DNA of 60,301 nucleotides from an uncultured Planctomycetota bacterium (lineage in GTDB: Bacteria > Planctomycetota > UBA1135 > GCA-002686595): assembly GCA_903892045.1 (NCBI GenBank), contig CAITGX010000275.1, positions 1 through 60,301 of the forward strand, in the 5' to 3' direction. The stretch's first letter is position 1. Each line of letters begins with the position of its first letter. Positions 16,180 to 40,867 of this stretch are shown one piece after another. A model generated the notes under the pieces. The model made no database searches and was not told the DNA's origin. It saw only the letters and a list, made by a program, of their open reading frames with translations. The translations under genes were made by a program, and so were the position numbers.

Positions 16180-16385
16180 CTGCGGCGAGAGCCCGCGTTC
16201 CGGCGGGGGACGATTCCCGCTCGCGAGACGGCCCCGAGGAAGACTCGGCCGGGGAGCGGTGGCCTTTCGGCGACTTGCGCGCGGCGCTACGATGCCCGCT
16301 TGCGGAGTTTCCTGCCCTAGCTCCGCGAAGCCCGCCGGGTTCGGTGCGCTTTGCGACTGCGGGAAGCCCCGCGCGCACCCTGCCC

Positions 16386-19300
16386 ATGCAGCGCCAAGAG
16401 GATGTCCGGCCGCAGGCCGCGGCGACGAGCGCGATCCGCGTCCGCGGAGCGCGTGTGCACAACCTGCACGGCGTCGACGTCGACATCCCGCGCAACGAGC
16501 TGGTGGCGATCACGGGCGTGTCGGGCTCGGGCAAGAGCTCGCTCGCCTTCGACACGCTGTTCCGCGAGGGACAGCGGCGCTTCCTCGAGACGCTGTCGGC
16601 GTACGCGCGCCAGTTCCTCGGGCGCATGGAGAAGCCCGACGTCGACTCGATCGAGGGCCTCGCGCCGGCGATCGCCGTCGATCAGGCGGCCGCGAGCTCG
16701 AGTCCGCGCTCGACCGTCGGCACGCTGACGGAGATCTTCGACCACCTGCGCGTGCTGTACGCGCGCGCCGGCCGGCCGCACTGCCCCAAGTGCAACGTGC
16801 CGCTGCAGTCGCTGACCCCGGAGTCGATCGTGCAGCAGGCGCTCGAGCTGTACGAGGGCAAGGCGGTCAACGTGCTCGCGCCGCTCATCCGCGACCGCAA
16901 GGGCCAGCACGAGGAGGTGCTCGAGGGACTCAAGCGCCGTGGACTGATCCGCGCGCGCGTCGATGGCACGATCGTGCGCATCGAGGAGGCGCCCAAGCTC
17001 GAGCGCTACGTGCGGCACACGATCGAGGCGGTCGTCGATCGCCTGCGCCCCGAGCGCGAGCAGCCCACGCGCCTGCGCGAGGCCGTCGAGAACGCGCTCG
17101 AGCTCTCCGGCGGTGACGTGATCTTCGCTCCGAGCGAGGAGGGACTCCCGGAGCGCGCGTGGTCCACGTCGCGCAACTGCCCTGGCTGCGGCGCCGACAC
17201 GCCGCCCCTCGAGCCGCGCCTCTTCTCGTTCAACTCTCCGCATGGCGCATGCCCGCAGTGCGAGGGACTCGGCCTGCGTCGGCAGGCGAGCGAGTCGCGC
17301 ATCGTGCGCGACGCCTCGCTCTCGATCCGCGAGGGAGCGCTCGCGGTCTCGAGCAAGTCCGGAACGTCGCTCAACTACCCGCCGGTCGACTTCGACTTCC
17401 TCGAGCAGGTCGCCGCGTCGTTCGACTTCGACCTCGACACGCCGTGGAAGGACCTGCCGCGCAGCGCGCGCCGCGTGATCCTGCACGGCGCGGGCGACGA
17501 GCGCTTCGAGGATGACTTCTCCTGGAACGGCGCGAAGTACCAGGGCTCGATCAAGTGGCAGCGGCGCTTCAAGGGCGTGATTCCGGCGCTGGAGAAGGCG
17601 GCTGCGGGCGGCAAGGCGACCGCGAGCGCGTTCTTCACGACGGCGGCCTGCGAGGCCTGCGCCGGAACGCGTCTCAAGCCGGCGGCGCTGGCCGTGCTCT
17701 TCGGCGGGGCATCGCTGCGCGAGCTGCTCAACCTCTCCATCCGCGAACTCGAGCCGCGACTCGAGAAGCTCGAGCTCTCCGCGCGCGAGGCGCGCATCGC
17801 TCGCGACCTGCTCGCGGAGGTCCGGAGGCGCACCGAGTTCCTGCGGCAGGTCGGCCTCGACTACCTGACGCTCGCGCGTGGTGCCGACACGCTCTCTGGC
17901 GGCGAGGCCCAGCGCATCCGGCTCGCGGCACAGCTCGGCAGCGCGCTGCAGGGCGTGCTGTACGTCCTCGACGAACCTTCGATCGGCCTCCACGCGCGCG
18001 ACCACGCCCAGCTGCTGCACGCGCTACAGCGCTTGCGCGACGGCGGCAACACGGTCGTGGTCGTCGAGCACGTCGAGGCCACGCTGCGCGCCGCGGACCA
18101 CATCATCGACGTCGGCCCGGGTGCGGGGCGCAACGGTGGCCACATCGTGGCGCGCGGCACGCCGCAGGACGTCGCGCGCGCGGACTCGCCGACGGGGCGC
18201 TTCCTGCGCGGCGAGCTCTCGATGCCCGCGCCCGCGCAGCGGCGCACCGGCAACGGCGAGTTCCTCGAGATCGAGGGAGCGCGCGCCTTCAACCTCAAGG
18301 GTGTCGACGCGCGCTTCCCGCTCGGCACGCTGTGCGTCGTCTCCGGCGTCAGCGGCTCGGGCAAGTCGACGCTGGTGAACCGCATCCTGCAGCCGGTGCT
18401 CGCGGCGCACCTCGAGCGCGAGGGCGACGAGCCCGGCGAGCACACGCGCGTGCGCGGCCTCGAGCGCGTGGGGGACATGGTGGCGATCGATGCCAGCCCG
18501 ATCGGTCGCACGCCGCGCAGCAACCCAGCCACGTATACGGGCGTGTTCGACCCGATCCGCGACCTGTTCGCGGCGCTGCCCGAGTCGCGCGTGCGCGGCT
18601 ACACGAAGTCGCGCTTCTCGTTCAACGTCGAGGGCGGTCGCTGCGAGGCCTGCGGCGGCGCGGGCTCCAAGCTCGTCGAGCTGCAGTTCCTCGCGCCCGT
18701 GACGGTGCCCTGCGACGAGTGCGGCGGCGAGCGCTTCCAGTCCGAGACGCTCGACGTGCGCTACAAGGAGAAGTCGATCGCCGACGTGCTCGCGCTCACG
18801 GTCGAGGAGGCGCTCGAGCTGTTCAAGGACCACCCGAAGATCGCGCGGCCGCTGCAGGCCATGGCGGACGTGGGCCTCTCGTACCTGACGCTCGGCCAGC
18901 CCTCGACGACCATCTCGGGCGGCGAGGCGCAGCGCATCAAGCTGGTCACGCAGCTGCAGAAGCGCGCCCGCGAGCACACCGTCTACCTGCTCGACGAGCC
19001 GACGACCGGGTTGCACCCGCAGGACATCGCGCGCCTCGTCGGAGCGCTGCAGCGCCTCGTCGACGCGGGTCACACCGCGATCGTGATCGAGCACAACCTC
19101 GACGTGATCCGAGCGGCGGACCACGTGCTCGATCTCGGGCCCGGCGGCGGTGACGCGGGTGGCGAGCTGGTCGCCTCGGGAACGCCGGAGCAGCTGATGC
19201 GCAACAAGCGCTCTGCGACGGGCGCCGCTCTGCGCGGCGAGCACGCGGTCGCTCGCAAGCAGCAGCTCGGCCGCGGCGAGCACGTGCCGAGCGACCGCAT

Positions 19301-22190
19301 CCGCGTCGTCGATGCAACCACGCACAACCTCGACCACGTCTCTGTCGACATGCCGCGCGACGCGCTGGTCGTGATCACGGGCCCCTCGGGCTCGGGCAAG
19401 AGCTCGCTCGCGCTCGACACGATCCACACGGAAGGCCGCCGACGCTTCGTCGAGTCGCTCTCGACCTACGCACGACAGTTCCTCGGGAACCGCGACAAGC
19501 CGCCCGTCGATCGCATCGAGGGACTCGGGCCGTCGGTGGCCGTCGAGGCGAGCACGTCGCGCGGCCATCCGCGCTCGACCGTCGCCACCACGACGGAGAT
19601 CCACGACCACCTGCGCGTCCTGTGGGCGCGCGCCGGGACTCCGCGCTGCCCGACGCACGGGCTCGAGCTCGCCAAGGTCGATCCGGCTCGCATCGCGCGC
19701 GACGTGCTGAAGCGTCACGCCGGCGGCAAGGGCTGGGTCGTCGCACCGGTGCGCGGTCCCGGCCTCGGAACGGATACGTTCGACAAGGAGCAGCTCGACA
19801 AGCTCGTCGACGCTTGGAAGGCCGCGGGCTTCGTGCGTCTGCTCGTCGACGGCTCGGAAGTCCGTCTCGACGGCAAGCTGCAAAAGCTCGGGGCCGAGGC
19901 GCGCGTCGACCTCGTGATCGACCGCCTCGGCTTCGCGCCGGACGCGCGCGCGCGCATCGCCGAGGCGGCCGAGCAGGCGGCCGCGCAAGCGCACGGCCGC
20001 GTGAGCATCGTCGTCGCCGGAGGCCCGCGACTCGAGTACTCGACGCAGGGCGCCTGCCCCGAGTGCGGCCACCGGCTCGAGCACCGCCTCGACCCGCGGC
20101 ACTTCTCGTTCAACACGCACGCGGGCGCCTGCCCCGAGTGCGACGGCCTCGGCTCTTCGAGCCGCTGCGATCCCGCGAAGCTCGTCCTGCACGAGGACCG
20201 CTCGCTGCTCGAGGACGCGCTGCATCCGAAGTTCGCGCGCTACCTCGTCAAGGGCAAGGGCTACTACGAGCACCTGTTCCTCACCGTCGCGCGCACGCAC
20301 AAGATCAAGGTCGAGCTCGCCTTCGGCAACCTGAGCAAGGCGCAGCAGGACCTGCTGCTGTTCGGCAAGGGCTCGAAGCCGCGCTACGAGGTGAAGATCG
20401 AGCGCGAGAGCATGAACGCGGAGATCTCCGAGCGCTTCACGGCCGACTGGCCGGGTCTGTGCGGACACATCGACGCCTGGCATCGCAAGACGGAAGACGC
20501 GGAGTGGGCCACGCTGCTCGAGCAGGTCATGACCACGGTCACGTGCCCGACCTGCGAAGGCGAGCGCCTGATGCCCGACGCGCGCCACGCCGTCGTCGCG
20601 GGCGTGCGCATGCCCGAAATGGCGCGCTGGTCCGTATCGCGCTCGCTCGAATGGCTGCGCAAGCTCGCGCTGCCGGCCTCGACGCGCGAGGGCGTGGAGC
20701 AGGTGGTCGGCGAGCTCGTCTCGCGCCTCTCGCTGCTCGAGCGCGTCGGTCTCGGCTACCTGACCCTCGACCGGCCGACGCACACGCTCTCGGGTGGCGA
20801 GGCGCGGCGCGTGCGGCTGTCCGCAAACCTCGGCTCGCAGCTCGTTGGCGTCTGCTACGTGCTCGACGAGCCCACCGTCGGCCTGCATCCCGCGGACGTC
20901 GAGAAGCTCACCGGCGCGCTGCTCGAGCTGCGCGCGGGAGGCAACAGCGTGCTCGTGGTCGAGCACGACGAGAGTCTGATGCGTCGCGCGGACTGGATCG
21001 TCGACATGGGCCCGGGCGCCGGTCGCCTCGGCGGCAAGGTCGTCGCCAGCGGCACGCCCGCGGAGATCGAGGCGCATGCGAGCTCGCTCACGGGCGCCGC
21101 CCTGCGTGGCGAGCTCGCCCCCGCGCGCAGCGCCGAGCGCGCGAGCGGACGCGAGAAGCGCGCGAAGATCCGGCTCGTCGGCGCGACCGGCAACAACCTG
21201 AAGAGCGTCGACTACGAAGCGCGCTTCGGCTCGATCAACGGCGTGTGCGGGCCCTCGGGTTCCGGCAAGAGCACGCTGGTGCTCGACACGCTCGTGCCCG
21301 CGCTGCGCGGCGAAGGGCCCGTGGGGCGCTGGCGCAAGCTCGAGGTCGGTATCGAGTCGCCGCGCGTCGTCGTCATCGACGCCTCGCCGATCGGGCGCAC
21401 TCCCGCGAGCACGCCCGCAACCTACACGGGGCTGCTCGAGCCGATCCGCGAGCTCTTCTCGCGCACGCCCGACGCGCGCATGAAGGGCTACGGACCGAGC
21501 CACTTCTCGTTCAACTCGCCCAAGGGGCGCTGCCCGGCCTGCGAGGGCAAGGGAGCGACGCTGGTCGAGATGCAGTTCCTCGCGGACCTGTGGCTCTCGT
21601 GCGACGAGTGCGGCGGACGGCGCTTCGCTCCGGAAGTGCTCGAGGTGCGCTATCGCGGCAAGAACGTCGCGGACGTGCTCGACCTCTCCGTCGACGAAGC
21701 GCTCGAGTTCCTCGACGCGCACCCGCGCGCCGTGTCGATCCTGCGCACGCTCTCCGACGTCGGCCTGGGCTACATGTCGCTCGGCCAGAGCTCTACGACG
21801 CTCTCCGGCGGCGAGGCCCAGCGAGTCAAGCTCGCCGGCGAGCTGTTCCCCGGCGAGTCCACGGGCCCCGCGGCGATCATCCTCGACGAGCCCTCGACCG
21901 GCCTGCACGCCTCCGACGTCGCGCGCCTCGCGCGCGTGCTCGGCCGACTCGCGGACGAAGGCCACGCCGTGATCCTGATCGAGCATCACACGGGACTGCT
22001 CGCGGCCTGCGACGAGCTCGTCGAGCTCGGTCCCGCGGGCGGCGAGGCCGGCGGACGCGTCATCGCGCGCGGCACGCCGGAGGAACTGTCCCGCGATCCG
22101 CGCTCGGTCACGGGGCCCTTCCTCGCCACCGACTCCGCTTCCCGCAACTCGCCCCCCGCGCGCCCCGGGCGCGTCGAGGTCCTGCGATGA
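16386..22190 (+). CDS. uvrA: Tandemly duplicated UvrA (two complete excinuclease ABC subunit A units in one 1934-aa polypeptide)
   Basis: ORF 16275..22190, with the ATG at 16386 just before IRVRGARVHNL. Unit 1 runs to about 19250 and unit 2 from about 19290. Four Walker A motifs (GVSGSGKSS, GVSGSGKST, GPSGSGKSS, GPSGSGKST). Four ABC signatures (LSGGEAQR x2, ISGGEAQR, LSGGEARR). Four Walker B motifs (LDEPS/T.GLH). UvrA zinc modules (CPKC..CPGC, CPQCEGLG, CEAC in unit 1; CPTH..CPEC, CPECDGLG, CPTCEG, CPACEGKG in unit 2). Confidence 0.9.
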   Translation: MQRQEDVRPQAAATSAIRVRGARVHNLHGVDVDIPRNELVAITGVSGSGKSSLAFDTLFREGQRRFLETLSAYARQFLGRMEKPDVDSIEGLAPAIAVDQAAASSSPRSTVGTLTEIFDHLRVLYARAGRPHCPKCNVPLQSLTPESIVQQALELYEGKAVNVLAPLIRDRKGQHEEVLEGLKRRGLIRARVDGTIVRIEEAPKLERYVRHTIEAVVDRLRPEREQPTRLREAVENALELSGGDVIFAPSEEGLPERAWSTSRNCPGCGADTPPLEPRLFSFNSPHGACPQCEGLGLRRQASESRIVRDASLSIREGALAVSSKSGTSLNYPPVDFDFLEQVAASFDFDLDTPWKDLPRSARRVILHGAGDERFEDDFSWNGAKYQGSIKWQRRFKGVIPALEKAAAGGKATASAFFTTAACEACAGTRLKPAALAVLFGGASLRELLNLSIRELEPRLEKLELSAREARIARDLLAEVRRRTEFLRQVGLDYLTLARGADTLSGGEAQRIRLAAQLGSALQGVLYVLDEPSIGLHARDHAQLLHALQRLRDGGNTVVVVEHVEATLRAADHIIDVGPGAGRNGGHIVARGTPQDVARADSPTGRFLRGELSMPAPAQRRTGNGEFLEIEGARAFNLKGVDARFPLGTLCVVSGVSGSGKSTLVNRILQPVLAAHLEREGDEPGEHTRVRGLERVGDMVAIDASPIGRTPRSNPATYTGVFDPIRDLFAALPESRVRGYTKSRFSFNVEGGRCEACGGAGSKLVELQFLAPVTVPCDECGGERFQSETLDVRYKEKSIADVLALTVEEALELFKDHPKIARPLQAMADVGLSYLTLGQPSTTISGGEAQRIKLVTQLQKRAREHTVYLLDEPTTGLHPQDIARLVGALQRLVDAGHTAIVIEHNLDVIRAADHVLDLGPGGGDAGGELVASGTPEQLMRNKRSATGAALRGEHAVARKQQLGRGEHVPSDRIRVVDATTHNLDHVSVDMPRDALVVITGPSGSGKSSLALDTIHTEGRRRFVESLSTYARQFLGNRDKPPVDRIEGLGPSVAVEASTSRGHPRSTVATTTEIHDHLRVLWARAGTPRCPTHGLELAKVDPARIARDVLKRHAGGKGWVVAPVRGPGLGTDTFDKEQLDKLVDAWKAAGFVRLLVDGSEVRLDGKLQKLGAEARVDLVIDRLGFAPDARARIAEAAEQAAAQAHGRVSIVVAGGPRLEYSTQGACPECGHRLEHRLDPRHFSFNTHAGACPECDGLGSSSRCDPAKLVLHEDRSLLEDALHPKFARYLVKGKGYYEHLFLTVARTHKIKVELAFGNLSKAQQDLLLFGKGSKPRYEVKIERESMNAEISERFTADWPGLCGHIDAWHRKTEDAEWATLLEQVMTTVTCPTCEGERLMPDARHAVVAGVRMPEMARWSVSRSLEWLRKLALPASTREGVEQVVGELVSRLSLLERVGLGYLTLDRPTHTLSGGEARRVRLSANLGSQLVGVCYVLDEPTVGLHPADVEKLTGALLELRAGGNSVLVVEHDESLMRRADWIVDMGPGAGRLGGKVVASGTPAEIEAHASSLTGAALRGELAPARSAERASGREKRAKIRLVGATGNNLKSVDYEARFGSINGVCGPSGSGKSTLVLDTLVPALRGEGPVGRWRKLEVGIESPRVVVIDASPIGRTPASTPATYTGLLEPIRELFSRTPDARMKGYGPSHFSFNSPKGRCPACEGKGATLVEMQFLADLWLSCDECGGRRFAPEVLEVRYRGKNVADVLDLSVDEALEFLDAHPRAVSILRTLSDVGLGYMSLGQSSTTLSGGEAQRVKLAGELFPGESTGPAAIILDEPSTGLHASDVARLARVLGRLADEGHAVILIEHHTGLLAACDELVELGPAGGEAGGRVIARGTPEELSRDPRSVTGPFLATDSASRNSPPARPGRVEVLR

Positions 22191-23962
22191 TCCGACCCGA
22201 CAATCCGCTGATCGTGCAGAGCGACCGCTCGCTCATGCTCCACACCGTGCGCGCCGTGGTCGACGCCAAGGGGCACCCCGTGCGCGACGCGCAGGGCCAG
22301 CCGCTGACGGAAGAGCACCCGCGCTTCGCGGAGGCGCGCGACGCGCTCGCCGGCTTCGCGGAGCTCGAGAAGAGCCCCGACTACCTGCACACCTACCGCA
22401 TCACGCCGGTGTCGGTGTGGAACGCGGCCGCGCTCGGCCTGACGGTCGAGAAGATCCAGCAGGTGCTCGACGAATACTCGTGCGTGCCCGTGCCGCGCCG
22501 CGTGCTCGAGGACGTCAAGGGCTGGATCACTCGCTACGGCCTGCTCAAGATCGAGCGCCGCCCGGGTCCGGATGGCAAGGACGCCTTCGAGCTCGCGAGT
22601 GCCTCGCGCGAGGCACTCGATGACGTGCTCGGCCACGAGGCCGTGCGCAAGCTCGTCAAGCTCGATGCGAGCAAGCGCGTGTGGGTCGATGCGCTCGATC
22701 GCGGCACGATCAAGCAAGCACTGATCAAGATCGGCTACCCCGTCGAGGACCGCGGCGGCTACGTCGAAGGCGACCGGCTCGAGTTCACGTTGCGGCCGCA
22801 CACGCGTGGCGGGAAGTCCTTCGCCCCGCGCAGCTACCAGCGCATGGCGGCCGAGGCGTTCCACGCCGGCGGCAGCGTGGTGGGCGGCAACGGCGTGATC
22901 GTGCTGCCCTGCGGAGCCGGCAAGACCGTCGTCGCGCTCACCGTGATGAGCCTCGTGCAGGCCAAGACGCTGATCCTCACCACGAACACCGTCGCGGTGC
23001 GCCAATGGCGCGAGGAGTTGCTCGACAAGACCACGCTGCGTCCTGAGGACGTCGGCGAGTACACGGGCGACAACAAGGTCGTGGCGCCGGTGACGATCAC
23101 GACCTACCAGATGCTCACCTGGCGTCGCGCGAAGACGGAGACCTTCGAGCACTTCGAGGTCTTCGGCAAGCAGAACTGGGGCCTCGTGGTGTACGACGAG
23201 GTGCACCTGCTGCCGGCGCCGGTGTTCCGCGCCACCGCGGAGCTGCAGGCTCGTCGGCGTCTCGGCCTCACGGCCACGCTGGTGCGCGAGGACGGCAAGG
23301 AGGACGAGGTCTTCTGCCTGATCGGTCCCAAGCGCTTCGACATGCCGTGGAAGGTGCTCGAAGGCCAGGGCTTCATCGCGACGGCGACGTGCACCGAGGT
23401 GCGCGTGCCGCTCGATCCGGGCGCGAAGCAAGCCTACGTCGCGGCGGGGGCGCGCGCGAAGTTCCGCGTCGCCAGCGAGAATCCCGCGAAGCTGCGCGCC
23501 GTGCAGCGCATCCTCGAGCGGCACGCCGGCGCGCACGTGCTCATCATCGGGCAGTACATCGAGCAGCTCGAGGAACTCGCGCGCGAGCTGAAGGCCCCGC
23601 TCATCATGGGCAAGACGCCCAACTCCGAGCGCGAGCGCCTCTACGCGCAGTTCAAGTCGGGCGAGCTGCGAGTGCTGATCGTTTCCAAGGTCGGCAACTT
23701 CGCCGTGGACTTGCCGGAGGCCAACGTCGCGATCCAGGTCAGCGGCACCTTCGGCTCGCGGCAAGAGGAGGCCCAGCGCCTCGGCCGCATCCTGCGCCCG
23801 AAGAGCGACGGGTCCGCCGCGGCCTTCTACTCGATCGTCACGCTCGGCTCGCGCGACCAAGAGTTCAGCGAGAAGCGCCAGCTGTTCCTCACCGAGCAGG
23901 GCTACTCCTACGAGATCATCGAGGCCGCGGCCCTCGAGCCGCGCACGGAGGCTGCGCGATGA
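22187..23962 (+). CDS. XPB/ERCC3/Ssl2-type SF2 DNA helicase/translocase
   Basis: 3' part of ORF 19622..23962. The ATG at 22187 overlaps the UvrA-UvrA stop (ATGA). Motif I LPCGAGKT. Motif II DEVH. XPB-specific RED motif in GLTATLVREDGKE. N-terminal domain typical of XPB (damage-recognition-like domain). Confidence 0.88.
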   Translation: MIRPDNPLIVQSDRSLMLHTVRAVVDAKGHPVRDAQGQPLTEEHPRFAEARDALAGFAELEKSPDYLHTYRITPVSVWNAAALGLTVEKIQQVLDEYSCVPVPRRVLEDVKGWITRYGLLKIERRPGPDGKDAFELASASREALDDVLGHEAVRKLVKLDASKRVWVDALDRGTIKQALIKIGYPVEDRGGYVEGDRLEFTLRPHTRGGKSFAPRSYQRMAAEAFHAGGSVVGGNGVIVLPCGAGKTVVALTVMSLVQAKTLILTTNTVAVRQWREELLDKTTLRPEDVGEYTGDNKVVAPVTITTYQMLTWRRAKTETFEHFEVFGKQNWGLVVYDEVHLLPAPVFRATAELQARRRLGLTATLVREDGKEDEVFCLIGPKRFDMPWKVLEGQGFIATATCTEVRVPLDPGAKQAYVAAGARAKFRVASENPAKLRAVQRILERHAGAHVLIIGQYIEQLEELARELKAPLIMGKTPNSERERLYAQFKSGELRVLIVSKVGNFAVDLPEANVAIQVSGTFGSRQEEAQRLGRILRPKSDGSAAAFYSIVTLGSRDQEFSEKRQLFLTEQGYSYEIIEAAALEPRTEAAR

Positions 23963-26061
23963 GCGAGTCGCCGACCTCGCGGCCGGCGGACGACGGGGCG
24001 GCGCGCGCGCCGCTCGCGCGACCGAGGCTCGCGGACCTGCTCGGCACGCTCGGCGAGCGCGAGCTCGGCGACCTGTACCTGTTCTGGGGCGGACCCGACT
24101 CTCCGCCGCCACCGGCGGACCTCGCGGAGCGTCGCAAGGTGCTCGCGGCCTGGATGAGCGCGGGCGAGGTCGCAGAAGCGCGCTTGCAGGGGCTCGGACG
24201 TCGCCCGCAACAGGTGCTCTCCATGTTCCTCGACGCGCAGGGGTACATGCACAGCACCGCCGAGCTCGGCGACCACCGGCTGCTGGCGCACCTCTCGCGC
24301 TATGAACTCGACTCGTGCGTCCAGGCGCTGGCGCGCTGCGGCGCGCTGCTGGAGGTGCCCGACCGGCGCTCGAAGGCCGCGGGCGCCAAGGCTTGGGTCG
24401 TGCCGATGGAGCTCGGCGACGGTCTCCTGCGGCAGCAACGCGCGAAGCGCCGCGGGGTGTTCGACCTGCTCACGCTGCGCGGCTTCCTCGACTGCCAGTA
24501 CGACGACCCGGCTCGCGGCCGCCGCATGACGCCGACGCGCCTGCGCGAGATGTACAAGATGTACTCCAACGAGGCCGCCTCGCTCGCGCGCGTCGAGCGC
24601 CTGCCGGACGACGTGCGACCGCTGGTCGAGAAGTGCATCCTGCAGTTCGGCGGGCTGCTGCCGCGCGCGCTGTTCGAGCGCCTCGAGGATGGCTCGGGAC
24701 CGTGGAATGGCGGGCGCTGGAAGCAGGTGCTCGAGGAGAGCCTCGTCGGAACGGTCGAGAAGCTCGAGCTCTCCCGCTACGGCATCGCGCACGCCGACGA
24801 CACGCTGGTCGTGTTCAACGAGATCGCGCTGGCGTGGCTGCGCCGCGTGGCGGTACCGGGCGACCCGGACGCGCCGCACTCCGAGCACGGACTCGGCGTC
24901 GATCTCGTCAGCAACATCTCGCGCTTCATGGGCTTCCTGATCGAGCACAACGTGCGCTTCACGGTGCGCGGCGAGATCTTCAAGACGACCGAGAAGCGCA
25001 TCCTGCAGGACCTGATCCCCAACCCCGGCCGCGAGCTCTCGCGCGCCGCCGTGCTCGACTTCATCTTCGAGTTCACGCGCGGCATGGGCCTGATCGAGTC
25101 GACCGGAGAGCGCACCTTCGCGATCGCCGCCGCAGGCCGCGACTGGGAGCAGCGCCCGCTCGAGCAGAAGCTGCACACGCTCGTCGAGTACGCCACGGAG
25201 GAGCGCGACGTCGCCGGCGACTGGTACCACCAAGTGCGCCTGCGCCGCATCTTCATGCGCCTGATGAAGCGCATGGAGCCGGGCACGTGGTACGACCTGA
25301 TGTACCTGCCGTTCCTCTCGCGCAACACGTACCTCGCCGGCCTCGACCAGCTCGCGGTCGACGAGTACTTCGCGACGCGCTCGCAAGGCGCGAGCTGCGC
25401 GCCGATGGAGGACCCGCAGCGACTGGCGTGGAACCTCGCGCGCTGGGTGCGCCAGCGCCTGTACCTCTTCGGCGTCGTCGAGCTCGGCTACGACCGCGCC
25501 GGTCGTCCGGTCGCCATGAAGCTCACGCGCTCCGGCGCACGCCTGCTCGGCGTGGTCGAGCAGGGGCCGGGAGCCGCTCCGCTCCTCGGCAGCCTGATCG
25601 TGACGCCCGACTTCGAGGTCGTGCTGTTCCCGACCGGCGACGACGCGGCGCTCGTGCACGAGCTCGACCGCTTCTGCGAGCGCGAGCGGCAGGGCGAGAC
25701 GATGCACTTCCGCATCCACGAGCGCTCGGTGCAGCGCGCTCTGTCGGAAGGCATGCTGCTTTCGCGCATGCTCTCGGTGCTGCGCCTGCAGTCTCGCACG
25801 CCCGTGCCGCAGAACGTGCTGTTCTCGATCCGCGACTGGGCGGGACGCGCGGGCGTGCTGCACCTCGACGCTTCGCTCGTCCTGCGCGGCGACGACCCGG
25901 ACACGCTCAAGCGCTTCCAGAGCGACGCCGGGGTGAAGAACTTCGTGCGCGAGGTGCTCGACGAGCGTCGCCTGCAGCTGAAGAGCCGCTACGCGCCCAA
26001 GCGCTTGCACTCGCTGCTGCGGGAGTTCGGCTACAAGGTCGAGCTCGACGGCGTGCAGTGA
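23959..26061 (+). CDS. XPB-associated protein, p52/Tfb2-like (C-terminal domain paralogous to the XPB N-terminal domain)
   Basis: 3' part of ORF 23347..26061. The ATG at 23959 overlaps the XPB stop (ATGA). C-terminal about 110 aa (LIVTPDFEVVLFP...MHFRIHERSVQRALSEGMLLSRMLSVLRLQSRTPVPQNVLFSIRDWAGRAG) aligns by eye with the XPB N-terminus (LIVQSDRSLML...HTYRITPVSVWNAAALGLTVEKIQQVLDEYSCVPVPRRVLEDVKGWITRYG). It also resembles the eukaryotic Tfb2/p52 pattern (ETNF.VYAY...ITRESV..AL..GI). Confidence 0.6.
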   Translation: MSESPTSRPADDGAARAPLARPRLADLLGTLGERELGDLYLFWGGPDSPPPPADLAERRKVLAAWMSAGEVAEARLQGLGRRPQQVLSMFLDAQGYMHSTAELGDHRLLAHLSRYELDSCVQALARCGALLEVPDRRSKAAGAKAWVVPMELGDGLLRQQRAKRRGVFDLLTLRGFLDCQYDDPARGRRMTPTRLREMYKMYSNEAASLARVERLPDDVRPLVEKCILQFGGLLPRALFERLEDGSGPWNGGRWKQVLEESLVGTVEKLELSRYGIAHADDTLVVFNEIALAWLRRVAVPGDPDAPHSEHGLGVDLVSNISRFMGFLIEHNVRFTVRGEIFKTTEKRILQDLIPNPGRELSRAAVLDFIFEFTRGMGLIESTGERTFAIAAAGRDWEQRPLEQKLHTLVEYATEERDVAGDWYHQVRLRRIFMRLMKRMEPGTWYDLMYLPFLSRNTYLAGLDQLAVDEYFATRSQGASCAPMEDPQRLAWNLARWVRQRLYLFGVVELGYDRAGRPVAMKLTRSGARLLGVVEQGPGAAPLLGSLIVTPDFEVVLFPTGDDAALVHELDRFCERERQGETMHFRIHERSVQRALSEGMLLSRMLSVLRLQSRTPVPQNVLFSIRDWAGRAGVLHLDASLVLRGDDPDTLKRFQSDAGVKNFVREVLDERRLQLKSRYAPKRLHSLLREFGYKVELDGVQ

Positions 26062-26702
26062 TGCGGCTGCCGCCGCCGATCCTCGCGCTCTCGCCGGGCA
26101 CGCTCGCGTCCGCGGATGCGCAGGCGTTCGTCGCACGCGTCGCGCGCTGTCGAGAGGCCGGCCTGCGCGGCGTGATGCTGCGCGAGCCGCGCCTGTCGGA
26201 TCGCGAGTATCTCGCCCTGGCAAAGGCCCTGCGCGATGCACTGCCGCGCGAGGACCGCGGCTGGCTCGCGCTGCACGACCGGCCCCACCTCGCCGCCGCG
26301 TGCGAGGCCGATGCCGTGCACTTGGGTGGGCGCTCGCTTCGTCCGGCGCTCCTTCGCGCCTGGATCGAGCCGCACATCGCGCTCGGACTCTCCACGCACG
26401 CCGCGGACGACGCCGAGAGTTGGTCGGGCGCCGACTATCTCGTGCACGGTCCGGTGTGTGCGACGCACAAGGGTGACGCCAGCATCGAAGGCATCGGCTT
26501 CGAGGCCCTCGCTCGCGGCGTCGCGCGAGCGAGCGTTCCGGTGTGGGGGCTCGGCGGGCTCGGTCCTGAACACGCCGCAGCGCTCGTGCAGGCAGGCGCG
26601 AGCGGACTCGCCGTGCTGAGCGGGCTGCTCGCGCGGCCCGATGCGGAGTACCGCGCCGCCGAGTACGCGCAGGCATGGCTGGAAGCGGCGCCCAAGGCGT
26701 AG
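26061..26702 (+). CDS. thiE: Thiamine-phosphate synthase
   Basis: 3' part of ORF 24315..26702. The ATG at 26061 shares one nt with the upstream stop (TGATG). TIM-barrel ThiE-like pattern (VHLGG, GLSTH, DYL..GPV, VPVWGLGG). Confidence 0.8.
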   Translation: MRLPPPILALSPGTLASADAQAFVARVARCREAGLRGVMLREPRLSDREYLALAKALRDALPREDRGWLALHDRPHLAAACEADAVHLGGRSLRPALLRAWIEPHIALGLSTHAADDAESWSGADYLVHGPVCATHKGDASIEGIGFEALARGVARASVPVWGLGGLGPEHAAALVQAGASGLAVLSGLLARPDAEYRAAEYAQAWLEAAPKA

Positions 26703-39152: not shown

Positions 39153-39283
39153 CTGGGGCGGGTTGGGGCGGCGCCCCTTCTGGCCCTCGCGCTCGCCCGA
39201 AAGGCGCGTCGATTGCCTGCGATTGCGGCGCGCCGGTAGTCTAGGACGCCGATCGGGGTGGTGGAACAGCGCCCCGCACCCCG

Positions 39284-40867
39284 ATGAGCGCCCGCATCGC
39301 CCGCCATTGCCCGCAGTGCGGCTCGCCCCTCGCGCGGGCCGTGGTGGAGGGCCGCGAGCGCAGCCGCTGCCCCGACTGCAGCTTCGTCCTGTACGAGAAC
39401 CCCGCCTGCGCCGTGGCGGCGCTGGTGGTCGACGCGGCCGGCCGGGTGCTGCTCGTGCGCCGCGCCCTGGACCCCTGCAAGGGCGACTGGGCGCTCCCGG
39501 CGGGCTTTCAGGAGATCGACGAGCAACCGGCGCAGACCGCCGTGCGCGAGGTCTTGGAAGAGGCGGGGATCGAGATCCGGCCCCAGTCCGTGTTCGACCT
39601 GTTCCTCGTGGCCCAGCCGGGCCGCCGGGCGGTGACCTTGGCGGTCTACCTGTGCGCGCACGCGAGCGGGGAGCCCGTGCCGGGCGACGACGCCCTCGAG
39701 GCCCGCTTCTTCGACCTCGACGCGCTGCCCCCGAACATCGCCTTCGACAACCGCGAGCGGATCCTCTCGCATCTGCGCGCCGATCCTCGTTACCTTGCCT
39801 GCACCACCATGAGCACCCAATCGACCGGCGGCACGCGCTCGATCTCCTACAAGGACTCGGGCGTCGACATCGAGAAGAAGTACGGCGCCGTCGAGCGCGC
39901 CACGGACGCGATCCGCAAGACCTTCACCAAGGGCGTGGTGGGGGACATCGGCAACTTCGGCGGCCTGTTCGACCTCGGCCGCGCCGGCGTCGGACAGGGC
40001 ATGCTCGTGGCGAGCGCCGACGGCGTCGGCACCAAGCTCGAAGTCGCCAAGCGCGCCAAGGTCTACCACACCGTCGGGCGCGACCTCGTCAACCACTGCA
40101 TCAACGACATCCTCGTGCAGGGTGCCCGTCCCCTGTTCTTCATGGACTACGTGGCGGTGGGCAAGATGGAGCCCGAGGTCGTGGCCGAGCTGATCCGCGG
40201 CTGCGCGGAGGGTTGCAGCGAGAATGCCGTCGCGCTGCTCGGCGGCGAGACCGCGGAGATGCCGGGCCTGTACGCAGTGGGCGACTTCGACCTCGCCGGC
40301 TTCATCGTCGGCATCGTCGATCCCACGAAGCTGCTCGATGGCAGCCGCGTGCGCCCCGGACAGGTCGTGCTCGGCCTCGCTTCGGCGGGCCTGCACACCA
40401 ACGGCTACTCGCTCGCGCGCAAGATCCTGTTCGACCACAAGGGGCACGCCGTCGATGCCCGTCCCGCCGAGCTCGGCGGCCAGTCGGTGGGGGAAGCGCT
40501 GCTCGCCGAGCACCGCTCGTACCTGAAGCTCCTGTGGCCGCTGCTCGAGCAGGGCAAGATCGCCGCCATGGCCCACATCACGGGCGGCGGACTCGTCGAC
40601 AACCTGCCGCGCGTGCTCGGCTCGAGCGACGCGGTCCTCGACCGCACCTCGTGGCCGGTCCCGGCGCTGTTCCGCTACCTGTGCGAGGCCGGCAACGTCG
40701 ACGCGGAAGAGCGCTACCAGGTGCTCAACATGGGCATCGGCATGGCGCTGATCGTCGACGCCGCCGACGTGGCCGCCGTGGGGAACCACTTCCGCGCGGT
40801 CGGCGAGCCGTTCTTCACGATCGGCCGCATCGAGGCGGGCAGCGGCATCGTGCGCTGGTCGCGCTGA
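39284..40867 (+). CDS. purM: Nudix hydrolase (zinc-ribbon N-terminus) fused in frame to phosphoribosylformylglycinamidine cyclo-ligase (AIR synthase)
   Basis: Residues 1-175: CPQC..CPDC zinc ribbon and a perfect Nudix box GFQEIDEQPAQTAVREVLEEAGI. Residues 176-527: PurM (YKDSGVDI, GGLFDL, ASADGVGTK, DYVA, LLGGETAEMP, TNGYSL, HITGGG). No stop codon between them. An internal ATG at 39809 could give a separate PurM. Confidence 0.85.
   Translation: MSARIARHCPQCGSPLARAVVEGRERSRCPDCSFVLYENPACAVAALVVDAAGRVLLVRRALDPCKGDWALPAGFQEIDEQPAQTAVREVLEEAGIEIRPQSVFDLFLVAQPGRRAVTLAVYLCAHASGEPVPGDDALEARFFDLDALPPNIAFDNRERILSHLRADPRYLACTTMSTQSTGGTRSISYKDSGVDIEKKYGAVERATDAIRKTFTKGVVGDIGNFGGLFDLGRAGVGQGMLVASADGVGTKLEVAKRAKVYHTVGRDLVNHCINDILVQGARPLFFMDYVAVGKMEPEVVAELIRGCAEGCSENAVALLGGETAEMPGLYAVGDFDLAGFIVGIVDPTKLLDGSRVRPGQVVLGLASAGLHTNGYSLARKILFDHKGHAVDARPAELGGQSVGEALLAEHRSYLKLLWPLLEQGKIAAMAHITGGGLVDNLPRVLGSSDAVLDRTSWPVPALFRYLCEAGNVDAEERYQVLNMGIGMALIVDAADVAAVGNHFRAVGEPFFTIGRIEAGSGIVRWSR

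Follow-up and report, generated by a model that had tools for sequence, protein, structure and literature searches.

ORF3, a protein of 700 amino acids encoded on the + strand of a contig from an uncultured Planctomycetota bacterium, is likely a member of the p52/Tfb2 lineage in bacteria and a partner dedicated to the XPB helicase whose gene immediately precedes its own. The stretch of DNA analyzed here, referred to as the window, comprises positions 1-60,301 of contig CAITGX010000275.1 (assembly GCA_903892045.1); its G+C content is ~71%, and its nearest relatives are uncultured Planctomycetota. The open reading frame (ORF) in question spans positions 23959-26061 and follows the XPB gene (22187-23962, +). 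The assignment is carried by domain homology, domain architecture, and gene linkage. It appears that a small XPB–p52 module exists in bacteria, something that publications on bacterial XPB describe as not having been found. The original prediction, made in an earlier reading of this DNA, had named ORF3 a p52/Tfb2 "analogue". The relation to p52 held, but the word is too weak, because at least the last winged helix and the so-called clutch domain are homologous to p52.

The C-terminal domain of ORF3 and its copy in XPB

In TFIIH, the clutch of p52 (residues 306-399) and the N-terminal domain of XPB share a fold and form a pseudo-symmetric dimer via their β-sheets (PMC6422496). The equivalent of the clutch was found at the C-terminus of ORF3, where amino acids 546-662 (25594-25944, +) matched the Pfam family PF13625 (Helicase_C_3) with an E-value of 3.5e-17 and 63 bits, the gathering cut-off being 34.2 bits. 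PF13625 was also detected in the upstream XPB (amino acids 43-156, E 1e-22). Direct BLASTP comparison of the two segments gave 30% identity over 99 amino acids (E 9e-10), and positions 2-156 of the NCBIfam XPB model matched amino acids 546-694 of ORF3 (E 1.2e-9). Furthermore, PF13625 was matched by each of 70 diverse members of the ORF3 family. Judged from sequence comparisons, the PF13625 domain of ORF3 is a paralog of the XPB N-terminal domain and a homolog of the p52 clutch.

The XPB protein itself (591 amino acids) was identified by the NCBIfam model NF045503 (repair_heli_XPB, 805.6 bits) and by the Pfam families ERCC3_RAD25_C, ResIII, and Helicase_C. Its N-terminal domain, delimited by PF13625 and BLASTP as amino acids 8-156 (22208-22654, +), is the predicted docking site for the clutch-like domain of ORF3. 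In ORF3, no helicase family (RecA lobes, ResIII/DEAD, ERCC3_RAD25_C) was matched in Pfam or NCBIfam.

That the C-terminus of ORF3 repeats the XPB N-terminal domain had been read from the sequence beforehand, and the presence of PF13625 in both proteins together with the BLASTP match confirmed it. The repeat had been placed at positions 25591-25900, which is the right site, but with a deviation of one codon at the start and an excess of ~34 nucleotides at the end: the segment LIVTPDFEVV...GVLHL corresponds to amino acids 546-636 (25594-25866), and its counterpart in XPB begins at amino acid 8 (position 22208). Similarly, the segments do align, but not strictly position by position as had been stated, because XPB carries an insertion of ~35 amino acids after the first two strands relative to the ORF3 domain, and this insertion had been skipped.

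The disease residue T119 of XPB is conserved in the p52 clutch (Greber 2019, PMC6422496). In the ORF3 family, the column matching human XPB T119 is occupied by threonine or serine in 59 of the 70 diverse members; ORF3 itself has His587 (25717-25719).

Relationship to p52/Tfb2

ORF3 has 415 homologs at E≤1e-3, the closest of them in metagenome-assembled genomes of Planctomycetota. A hidden Markov model (HMM) search of the whole library retrieved 2974 representatives (50% clustering) at E≤1e-3, 147 of which remained at E≤1e-30. ORF3 and its relatives bear the NCBI name "helicase-associated domain-containing protein". Three alignments were used for profile comparisons: a shallow one of close relatives (A1), one of the 70 diverse family members with 20-54% identity to ORF3 (A2), and one of p52 (A3), which consisted of 12 vertebrate sequences including the human one plus yeast Tfb2. 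The human p52 query sequence was 100% identical to the p52 chains in the PDB.

With ORF3 alone, nothing was found among PDB sequences (phmmer), and the A1 profile reached human XPB only (residues 112-215, E 0.018) and never p52. Aligned by hhalign with a single p52 sequence, A1 hit the correct region at just 3% probability; the diverse alignment was needed. A2 aligned with human p52 at a probability of 86.7% (E 4.3e-6), amino acids 483-633 of ORF3 pairing with residues 248-400 of p52, which comprise the last winged helix and the clutch. The comparison of A2 with A3 raised the probability to 93.6% (E 2.2e-7) and yielded 373 collinear columns, from amino acids 170-635 of ORF3 to residues 16-402 of p52. 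The C-terminal 161 amino acids of ORF3 against residues 300-462 of p52 gave 95.7% (E 9e-9).

In the hhalign pairing, RIHERSVQRALSEGM...TPVPQNVLFSIRDW of ORF3 is matched with VTRESVQQAIASGI...TPVLPPTITDQIRLW of p52, and the resemblance in Tfb2/p52 motifs that had been proposed earlier was thereby recovered. The first motif reads LIVNPDFEVxLFP in the family, FIVVETNYRLYAY in human p52, and LIVETNFKIYSY in yeast Tfb2. The second reads HYRLTRESVxRA in the family and AQVTRESVQQA in human p52, and the third, SRxPVPQNVxYSIRxW in the family, is paired with the human segment TPVLPPTITDQIRLW (there is no yeast entry for these two). Reduced to their cores, the shared motifs are LIVNPDFEV in the family and IVVETNYRLY in p52, TRESV in both, and PVPQNV..SIR.W in the family and VLPPTI.DQIRLW in p52. 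One tryptophan and one proline are near-invariant in both the family and p52.

The Pfam model of Tfb2 (PF03849) pointed the same way below its threshold: 19 of the 70 diverse members matched it, the best with an E-value of 1.1e-5 and 25 bits vs a gathering score of 34.5 bits. These matches fall in the C-terminal third of the model (profile positions ~187-356). Conversely, the precomputed Pfam matches of vertebrate p52 include PF13625 beside Tfb2 and Tfb2_C. The strongest Tfb2 match of the family (E 1.1e-5) belongs to a protein of 784 amino acids (P0259) with two PF13625 stretches; it is encoded by the downstream one of two tandem p52-like genes, overlapping by 4 nucleotides, on a hydrothermal vent metagenome contig (L081:3-2938).

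Additionally, AlphaFold2 models were compared with 350,542 PDB chains by Foldseek. The model of full-length ORF3 had a predicted local distance difference test score (pLDDT) of 71 and a predicted template modeling score (pTM) of 0.41. Its top seven matches were all p52/Tfb2, namely 8ebs_D (E 2.3e-7, 541 columns), 8ebt_D, 7zs9_2, 9a88_C, 7o4i_2, 7egc_4, and 6trs_A. The identity of 8ebt_D, 7o4i_2, 7zs9_2, and 6trs_A was verified by sequence, and the last of these entries bears the title "TFIIH subunit p52 in complex with p8"; 8ebs_D, 9a88_C, and 7egc_4 were assigned to p52 because of their length and the names given to related entries. XPB/Ssl2 chains ranked next, followed by generic winged-helix regulators. 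The profile and structural kinship of the C-terminus anticipated by the original prediction is supported by PF13625 above its threshold, by the hhalign matches of the C-terminal segment and of A2 with A3, and by these seven chains. On the basis of aligned sequence, homology to p52 is secure for approximately amino acids 483-635 alone, that is, the last winged helix and the clutch domain.

The N-terminal winged-helix array

The N-terminal 545 amino acids of ORF3 matched no Pfam family, even at E≤10. An AlphaFold2 model of amino acids 1-540, built from the diverse alignment, showed a helical bundle and four winged-helix modules (pLDDT 86.2, pTM 0.75), in agreement with the earlier description of this part as a series of such modules. 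The helical bundle and the first module occupy amino acids 23-147 (24025-24399, +; pLDDT ~90) and have no p52 counterpart in the collinear hhalign alignment, which starts at amino acid 170. The secondary structure of the model places a helical linker region at amino acids 150-213 (24406-24597, +), followed by the second module at amino acids 220-298 (24616-24852, +), with the conserved motifs GG..LP and LEESLVGT. The third module (amino acids 308-398; 24880-25152, +) harbors VRFTVRGEIFKTTEKR (invariant columns), the stretch with the highest conservation among close family members, and may serve as a surface for binding DNA or a partner. The fourth spans amino acids 401-530 (25159-25548, +); its residues 483-530 lie within the hhalign match to human p52 given above and align with the winged helix before the clutch (p52 248-300).

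When the N-terminal model alone was submitted to Foldseek, the two best PDB matches were yeast Tfb2 (E 3.5e-3 and 1.5e-2, ~370 columns), and 6trs_A ranked seventh. In this modeled region, the resemblance of ORF3 to p52 is probably architectural and structural.

The C-terminal tail

Downstream of the clutch-like domain, amino acids 663-700 (25945-26058, +) form a tail predicted as strand-strand-helix-strand (pLDDT ~87). Its function may correspond to that of the C-terminal domain of p52 or to that of p8. On plasmid pDATS01 of Deinococcus aquaticus, a "hypothetical protein" of 115 amino acids is encoded between XPB and the p52-like gene (L092:6743-7090), and its residues 53-106 match amino acids 638-692 of ORF3 (E 2.4e-11). 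This small protein is a stand-alone copy of the module at the C-terminus of the partner, an arrangement suggestive of p8/Tfb5, which mirrors the C-terminal domain of p52.

Weighing the assignment to the p52 lineage

Several results weigh against placing ORF3 in the p52 lineage. ORF3 itself showed no Pfam match to Tfb2 or Tfb2_C (PF18307), even at E≤10, and the gathering score of Tfb2 was attained by none of the 70 diverse family members, the best staying at the 25 bits mentioned above. The TM-scores to p52 were low (0.15-0.3), owing to a relative arrangement of the domains that is either different or uncertain. Aligned alone with p52 by hhalign, the N-terminal 540 amino acids gave no significant match (E 0.23), and therefore no sequence homology to p52 is claimed there; the Foldseek search with this part was marginal, with no match at 1e-3 and with C82 of RNA polymerase III and other winged-helix arrays also listed. 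For the tail, hhalign found no significant match to the C-terminal (p8-binding) domain of p52 or to p8, a comparison that is uninformative because its positive control, the C-terminal domain of p52 vs p8, scored nothing either. Regarding the genomic context, no vWA/p34-, p44-, or p62-like genes were found in the operon or among the scanned ORFs of the window, and no homolog of p8 was seen nearby, so that the scaffold role of p52 would probably not carry over. The association with UvrA is clade-specific, other clades having the pair after gyrB-gyrA or by unrelated genes.

Part of this evidence would also fit an unrelated DNA-binding protein with several winged helices, such as a transcription regulator, that independently acquired its copy of the N-terminal domain of XPB and came to resemble p52 in architecture by convergence. 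The N-terminal 540 amino acids have neither a significant p52 profile match nor a Pfam family, their Foldseek E-values reach just 3.5e-3 to 0.1 with generic winged helix-turn-helix regulators listed beside C82, and the clutch sequence of ORF3 is nearer to bacterial XPB than to p52. However, the significant hhalign region does not stop at the clutch but runs into the winged helix before it (ORF3 483-540 to p52 248-300), and one family member matches the Tfb2 profile at positions 187-356. Moreover, Tfb2 remains the top PDB match when the clutch is left out, over ~370 collinear columns, and the order of several winged helices followed by a clutch is that of p52 (PMC6422496). We regard such a capture as unlikely.

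XPB–partner pairs across bacteria

The neighborhood of ORF3 was compared among 80 related loci from reference genomes, one per Planctomycetota species, with 53-92% identity; the clade-specific search patterns returned Planctomycetota only. The order double-UvrA, XPB, ORF3, thiE was kept wherever the flanks reach, and XPB was located directly upstream in each locus having upstream sequence. Among nine divergent relatives (20-31% identity), XPB was found immediately upstream on the same strand, often overlapping, in eight, while the other neighbors differed: gyrB-gyrA in two, a double-UvrA in one, and unrelated genes in others. The contig of the ninth is cut, and a second family member lies upstream there. 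The claim that ORF3 is the partner of the upstream XPB thus gains support from a strict gene pairing that persists across very divergent lineages.

In two of the contigs (L082:1-9052 and L083:1-8986), gyrB-gyrA is directly followed, on the same strand, by the XPB–partner pair. This adjacency suggests a link between the XPB translocase and the control of DNA supercoiling.

Neighborhoods in other phyla were found by searching annotated records with XPB. In Paenibacillus, XPB is followed by an overlapping gene for a "helicase-associated domain-containing protein" of 657 amino acids, and in Deinococcus by the 115-amino-acid ORF and a partner of 805 amino acids, in this order. The partner adjoins XPB in divergent orientation in Actinomyces (A. 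oris), and in the cyanobacterium Gloeocapsopsis, a "hypothetical" protein of 624 amino acids is encoded directly upstream of XPB. The family HMM matched all four of these partners with E-values of 1e-13 to 1e-28, including regions upstream of the clutch. In Tsukamurella (Mycobacteriales), a partner identified by its NCBI name only is located ~3.5 kb upstream of XPB. Besides Planctomycetota, the pair is present in Bacillota, Deinococcota, Actinomycetota, and Cyanobacteriota. Partners from Actinomycetota are longer (725-847 amino acids) and not always co-directional with XPB. Family members also occur in M. avium subsp. paratuberculosis; with Tsukamurella, they make the family relevant to pathogens. 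In M. tuberculosis, Rv0862c, beside the XPB gene Rv0861c, is presumably the family member. Papers that mention Rv0862c merely list it and report no function.

Two haloarchaeal plasmid XPBs were examined (L095, L096), and neither has an ORF3-like neighbor. These XPB-like helicases align with bacterial XPB from amino acids 43-51 onward, so that part of the N-terminal domain is seemingly kept.

A tblastn search of plasmids with ORF3 returned a truncated copy of 343 amino acids only, which is encoded on plasmid pSINAC01 of Singulisphaera acidiphila (L090:6713-7741) and adjoins an IS66 transposase; the insertion has apparently cut the gene and left this remnant. The copy beside a mobile element, the frequency of helicase-plus-partner pairs in defense islands, and partial matches of XPB to the PADLOC models of the PbeA helicase could indicate that the pair serves in defense against phages or mobile elements, not in repair. 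These PbeA matches are limited to the generic C-terminal lobe of the helicase, though, and the window is core chromosome (glyA, purC, aroA, uvrA, thiE, thiL, rseP, sdhA). The gene order is stable over 80 species-level genomes, and where the context differs, the neighbors are housekeeping genes (gyrBA, ribosomal-protein genes). A defense module is therefore very improbable. For ORF3, an identity as a defense-system protein was rejected, as it matched no PADLOC model.

The operon and its surroundings

On the + strand of the window, uvrA, xpb, ORF3, and a thiE-like gene are linked by overlapping stop and start codons, and thiL follows the thiE-like gene. The first gene of this operon encodes a tandem-duplicated UvrA (16275-22190, +; ≤1971 amino acids) with two complete UvrA units, matched by NF001503 in two stretches with 2214 bits. 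It represents a head-to-tail fusion that has kept the UvrB-interaction and DNA-binding domains in both halves; its start codon is uncertain because conservation starts only at approximately amino acids 37-54. The same double-UvrA fusion precedes XPB in the related Planctomycetota loci where the flank reaches, and also in one divergent locus (L087).

At the junction of uvrA and xpb, the ATG of XPB overlaps the uvrA stop codon in the sequence ATGA (22187-22190, +). The same tetranucleotide joins xpb to ORF3 (23959-23962, +), where the ORF3 ATG overlaps the XPB stop codon. This suggests translational coupling of the two genes, which would favor equal amounts of both proteins. The stop of ORF3 in turn overlaps the start of the thiE-like gene in the sequence TGATG (26059-26063, +). 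Through the three successive junctions, the repair genes are apparently translationally coupled to the thiamine-synthesis genes thiE and thiL in one operon. The thiE-like gene (26061-26702, +; PF02581, E 6.6e-31) is not beside the XPB–partner pair in other clades and is a clade-specific passenger of the operon. A scan for promoters and terminators revealed no promoter-like site in the operon; two terminator-like matches were located, both within uvrA, which is fewer than expected by chance.

The wider window is ordinary core chromosome and includes glyA, purC, aroA, a DacB-like peptidase gene, rseP, and sdhA. An unusual fusion is encoded at 39245-40864 (+), in which an N-terminal NUDIX domain is joined by a zinc ribbon and an AIR-synthase-related module (AIRS/AIRS_C).

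Proposed mechanism and significance

In TFIIH, the dimer formed by the p52 clutch recruits XPB and, with the C-terminal domain of p52 and p8 cradling the second RecA lobe (RecA2), stimulates the XPB ATPase (PMC6422496). Purified XPB of M. tuberculosis unwound DNA only at large molar excess and was an inefficient ATPase (PMC3353954). From the domain pairing and the strict synteny we infer that ORF3 binds XPB and stimulates its ATPase. As in TFIIH, the clutch-like domain of ORF3 and the N-terminal domain of XPB would pack β-sheet to β-sheet into a pseudo-symmetric heterodimer, and the clutch and the short C-terminal tail would rest against the second RecA lobe of XPB. Docking of ORF3 would turn an intrinsically weak ATPase and translocase into an active one, or position the motor, and the N-terminal winged-helix array may bind DNA or bring XPB and ORF3 to a further machine. 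Here, the two proteins would work together with UvrA as a motor that opens DNA or translocates; membership in the uvrA operon points to a role in nucleotide excision repair in this organism.

The same domain and synteny evidence would also suit a partner that restrains or just anchors XPB, the clutch-like domain keeping the helicase inactive or tethered until DNA damage, UvrA, or a like signal appears, as this evidence is silent on the sign of the effect on XPB. Yet p52 stimulates XPB in the sole characterized system with this domain pair (PMC6422496), and bacterial XPB performs poorly even by itself (PMC3353954), which speaks for an absent activator rather than an absent brake. We consider restraint or anchoring improbable, and activation by ORF3 remains the proposed effect.

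The family had already been tagged generically by NCBI and by Pfam, via PF13625. No paper was found that gives it a function or ties it to p52; the search missed most subscription journals, and an earlier description is possible. We rate ORF3 and XPB as an XPB–p52-type module working outside TFIIH, in bacteria. Bacterial XPB has been on record since the 1990s; the enzyme performs poorly in vitro, and a 2026 review calls its role "elusive" (PMC13024598). A conserved, co-translated p52-like partner offers a testable reason for the poor activity, and bacterial XPB has probably been studied so far without its activator. Furthermore, the pair provides a two-protein bacterial model for the control of XPB by a dimer of clutch and N-terminal domain, an interface that carries human xeroderma pigmentosum/trichothiodystrophy mutations. 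The link to uvrA in this organism suggests a hybrid of bacterial and eukaryote-like excision repair.

The pair also opens the question of whether part of TFIIH has a bacterial ancestry. As a tentative and rather doubtful idea, the XPB–p52 "bottom lobe" of TFIIH, possibly with a p8-like module, might derive from an ancient bacterial operon of XPB and its partner, and not from archaeal XPB–Bax1. Living bacteria would then harbor a DNA-opening motor in the manner of a mini-TFIIH, coupled to UvrA in some lineages and to gyrase in others. We keep this reading open because the similarity of the window XPB to eukaryotic XPB is about double that to archaeal XPB, and because the partner family is broad and deep, being very divergent and present in at least five phyla. 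It is supported by the p52-docking N-terminal domain, which is common to bacterial and eukaryotic XPB, and by the free-standing copy of the tail module in Deinococcus.

Comparison with known systems

Like p52/Tfb2 (GTF2H4; PF03849, PF18307), ORF3 consists of serial winged helices followed by a clutch with the fold of the XPB N-terminal domain, shares the motifs IV.(E/P)(T/D)(N/F).., TRESV, and (V/L)P(P/Q)..(D/S)(Q/I)R.W with the invariant tryptophan, and is accompanied by an XPB bearing the matching N-terminal domain. It differs from p52/Tfb2 in being ~240 amino acids longer, with an additional region of helices and winged helix at the N-terminus, and in failing the Pfam Tfb2 gathering score and lacking a Tfb2_C match. 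Moreover, no p34-, p62-, p44-, or p8-like genes were seen near ORF3, which instead shares an operon with XPB and, in this organism, also with uvrA.

Compared to the N-terminal domain of XPB/Ssl2 (PF13625), the C-terminal domain of ORF3 is a bona fide member of the same family, 30% identical to that of the neighboring XPB. Unlike XPB/Ssl2, ORF3 has neither RecA lobes nor a damage-recognition-like domain, and its PF13625 domain is C-terminal, after the winged helices.

The archaeal XPB–Bax1 pair is alike in that an XPB gene lies beside that of a dedicated partner, which in that case is physically associated and modulating (PMC7672443, cited in PMC3353954); for ORF3, the association is predicted. 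Bax1 differs in being a nuclease with another mode of XPB binding. In ORF3, no nuclease domain was indicated by Pfam, NCBIfam, or PDB sequences, XPB being the sole match, and Bax1 chains were absent among the 50 Foldseek matches listed. With regard to mycobacterial XPB (Rv0861c), the likeness lies in the XPB–partner pairing found in Actinomycetota (Actinomyces oris, Tsukamurella). Finally, the window XPB matched PDB chains of eukaryotic XPB/Ssl2 with 265-295 bits and those of archaeal XPB with 129-139 bits, and bacterial and eukaryotic XPB both have the N-terminal domain, whereas the archaeal XPBs of the Bax1 type are without it.

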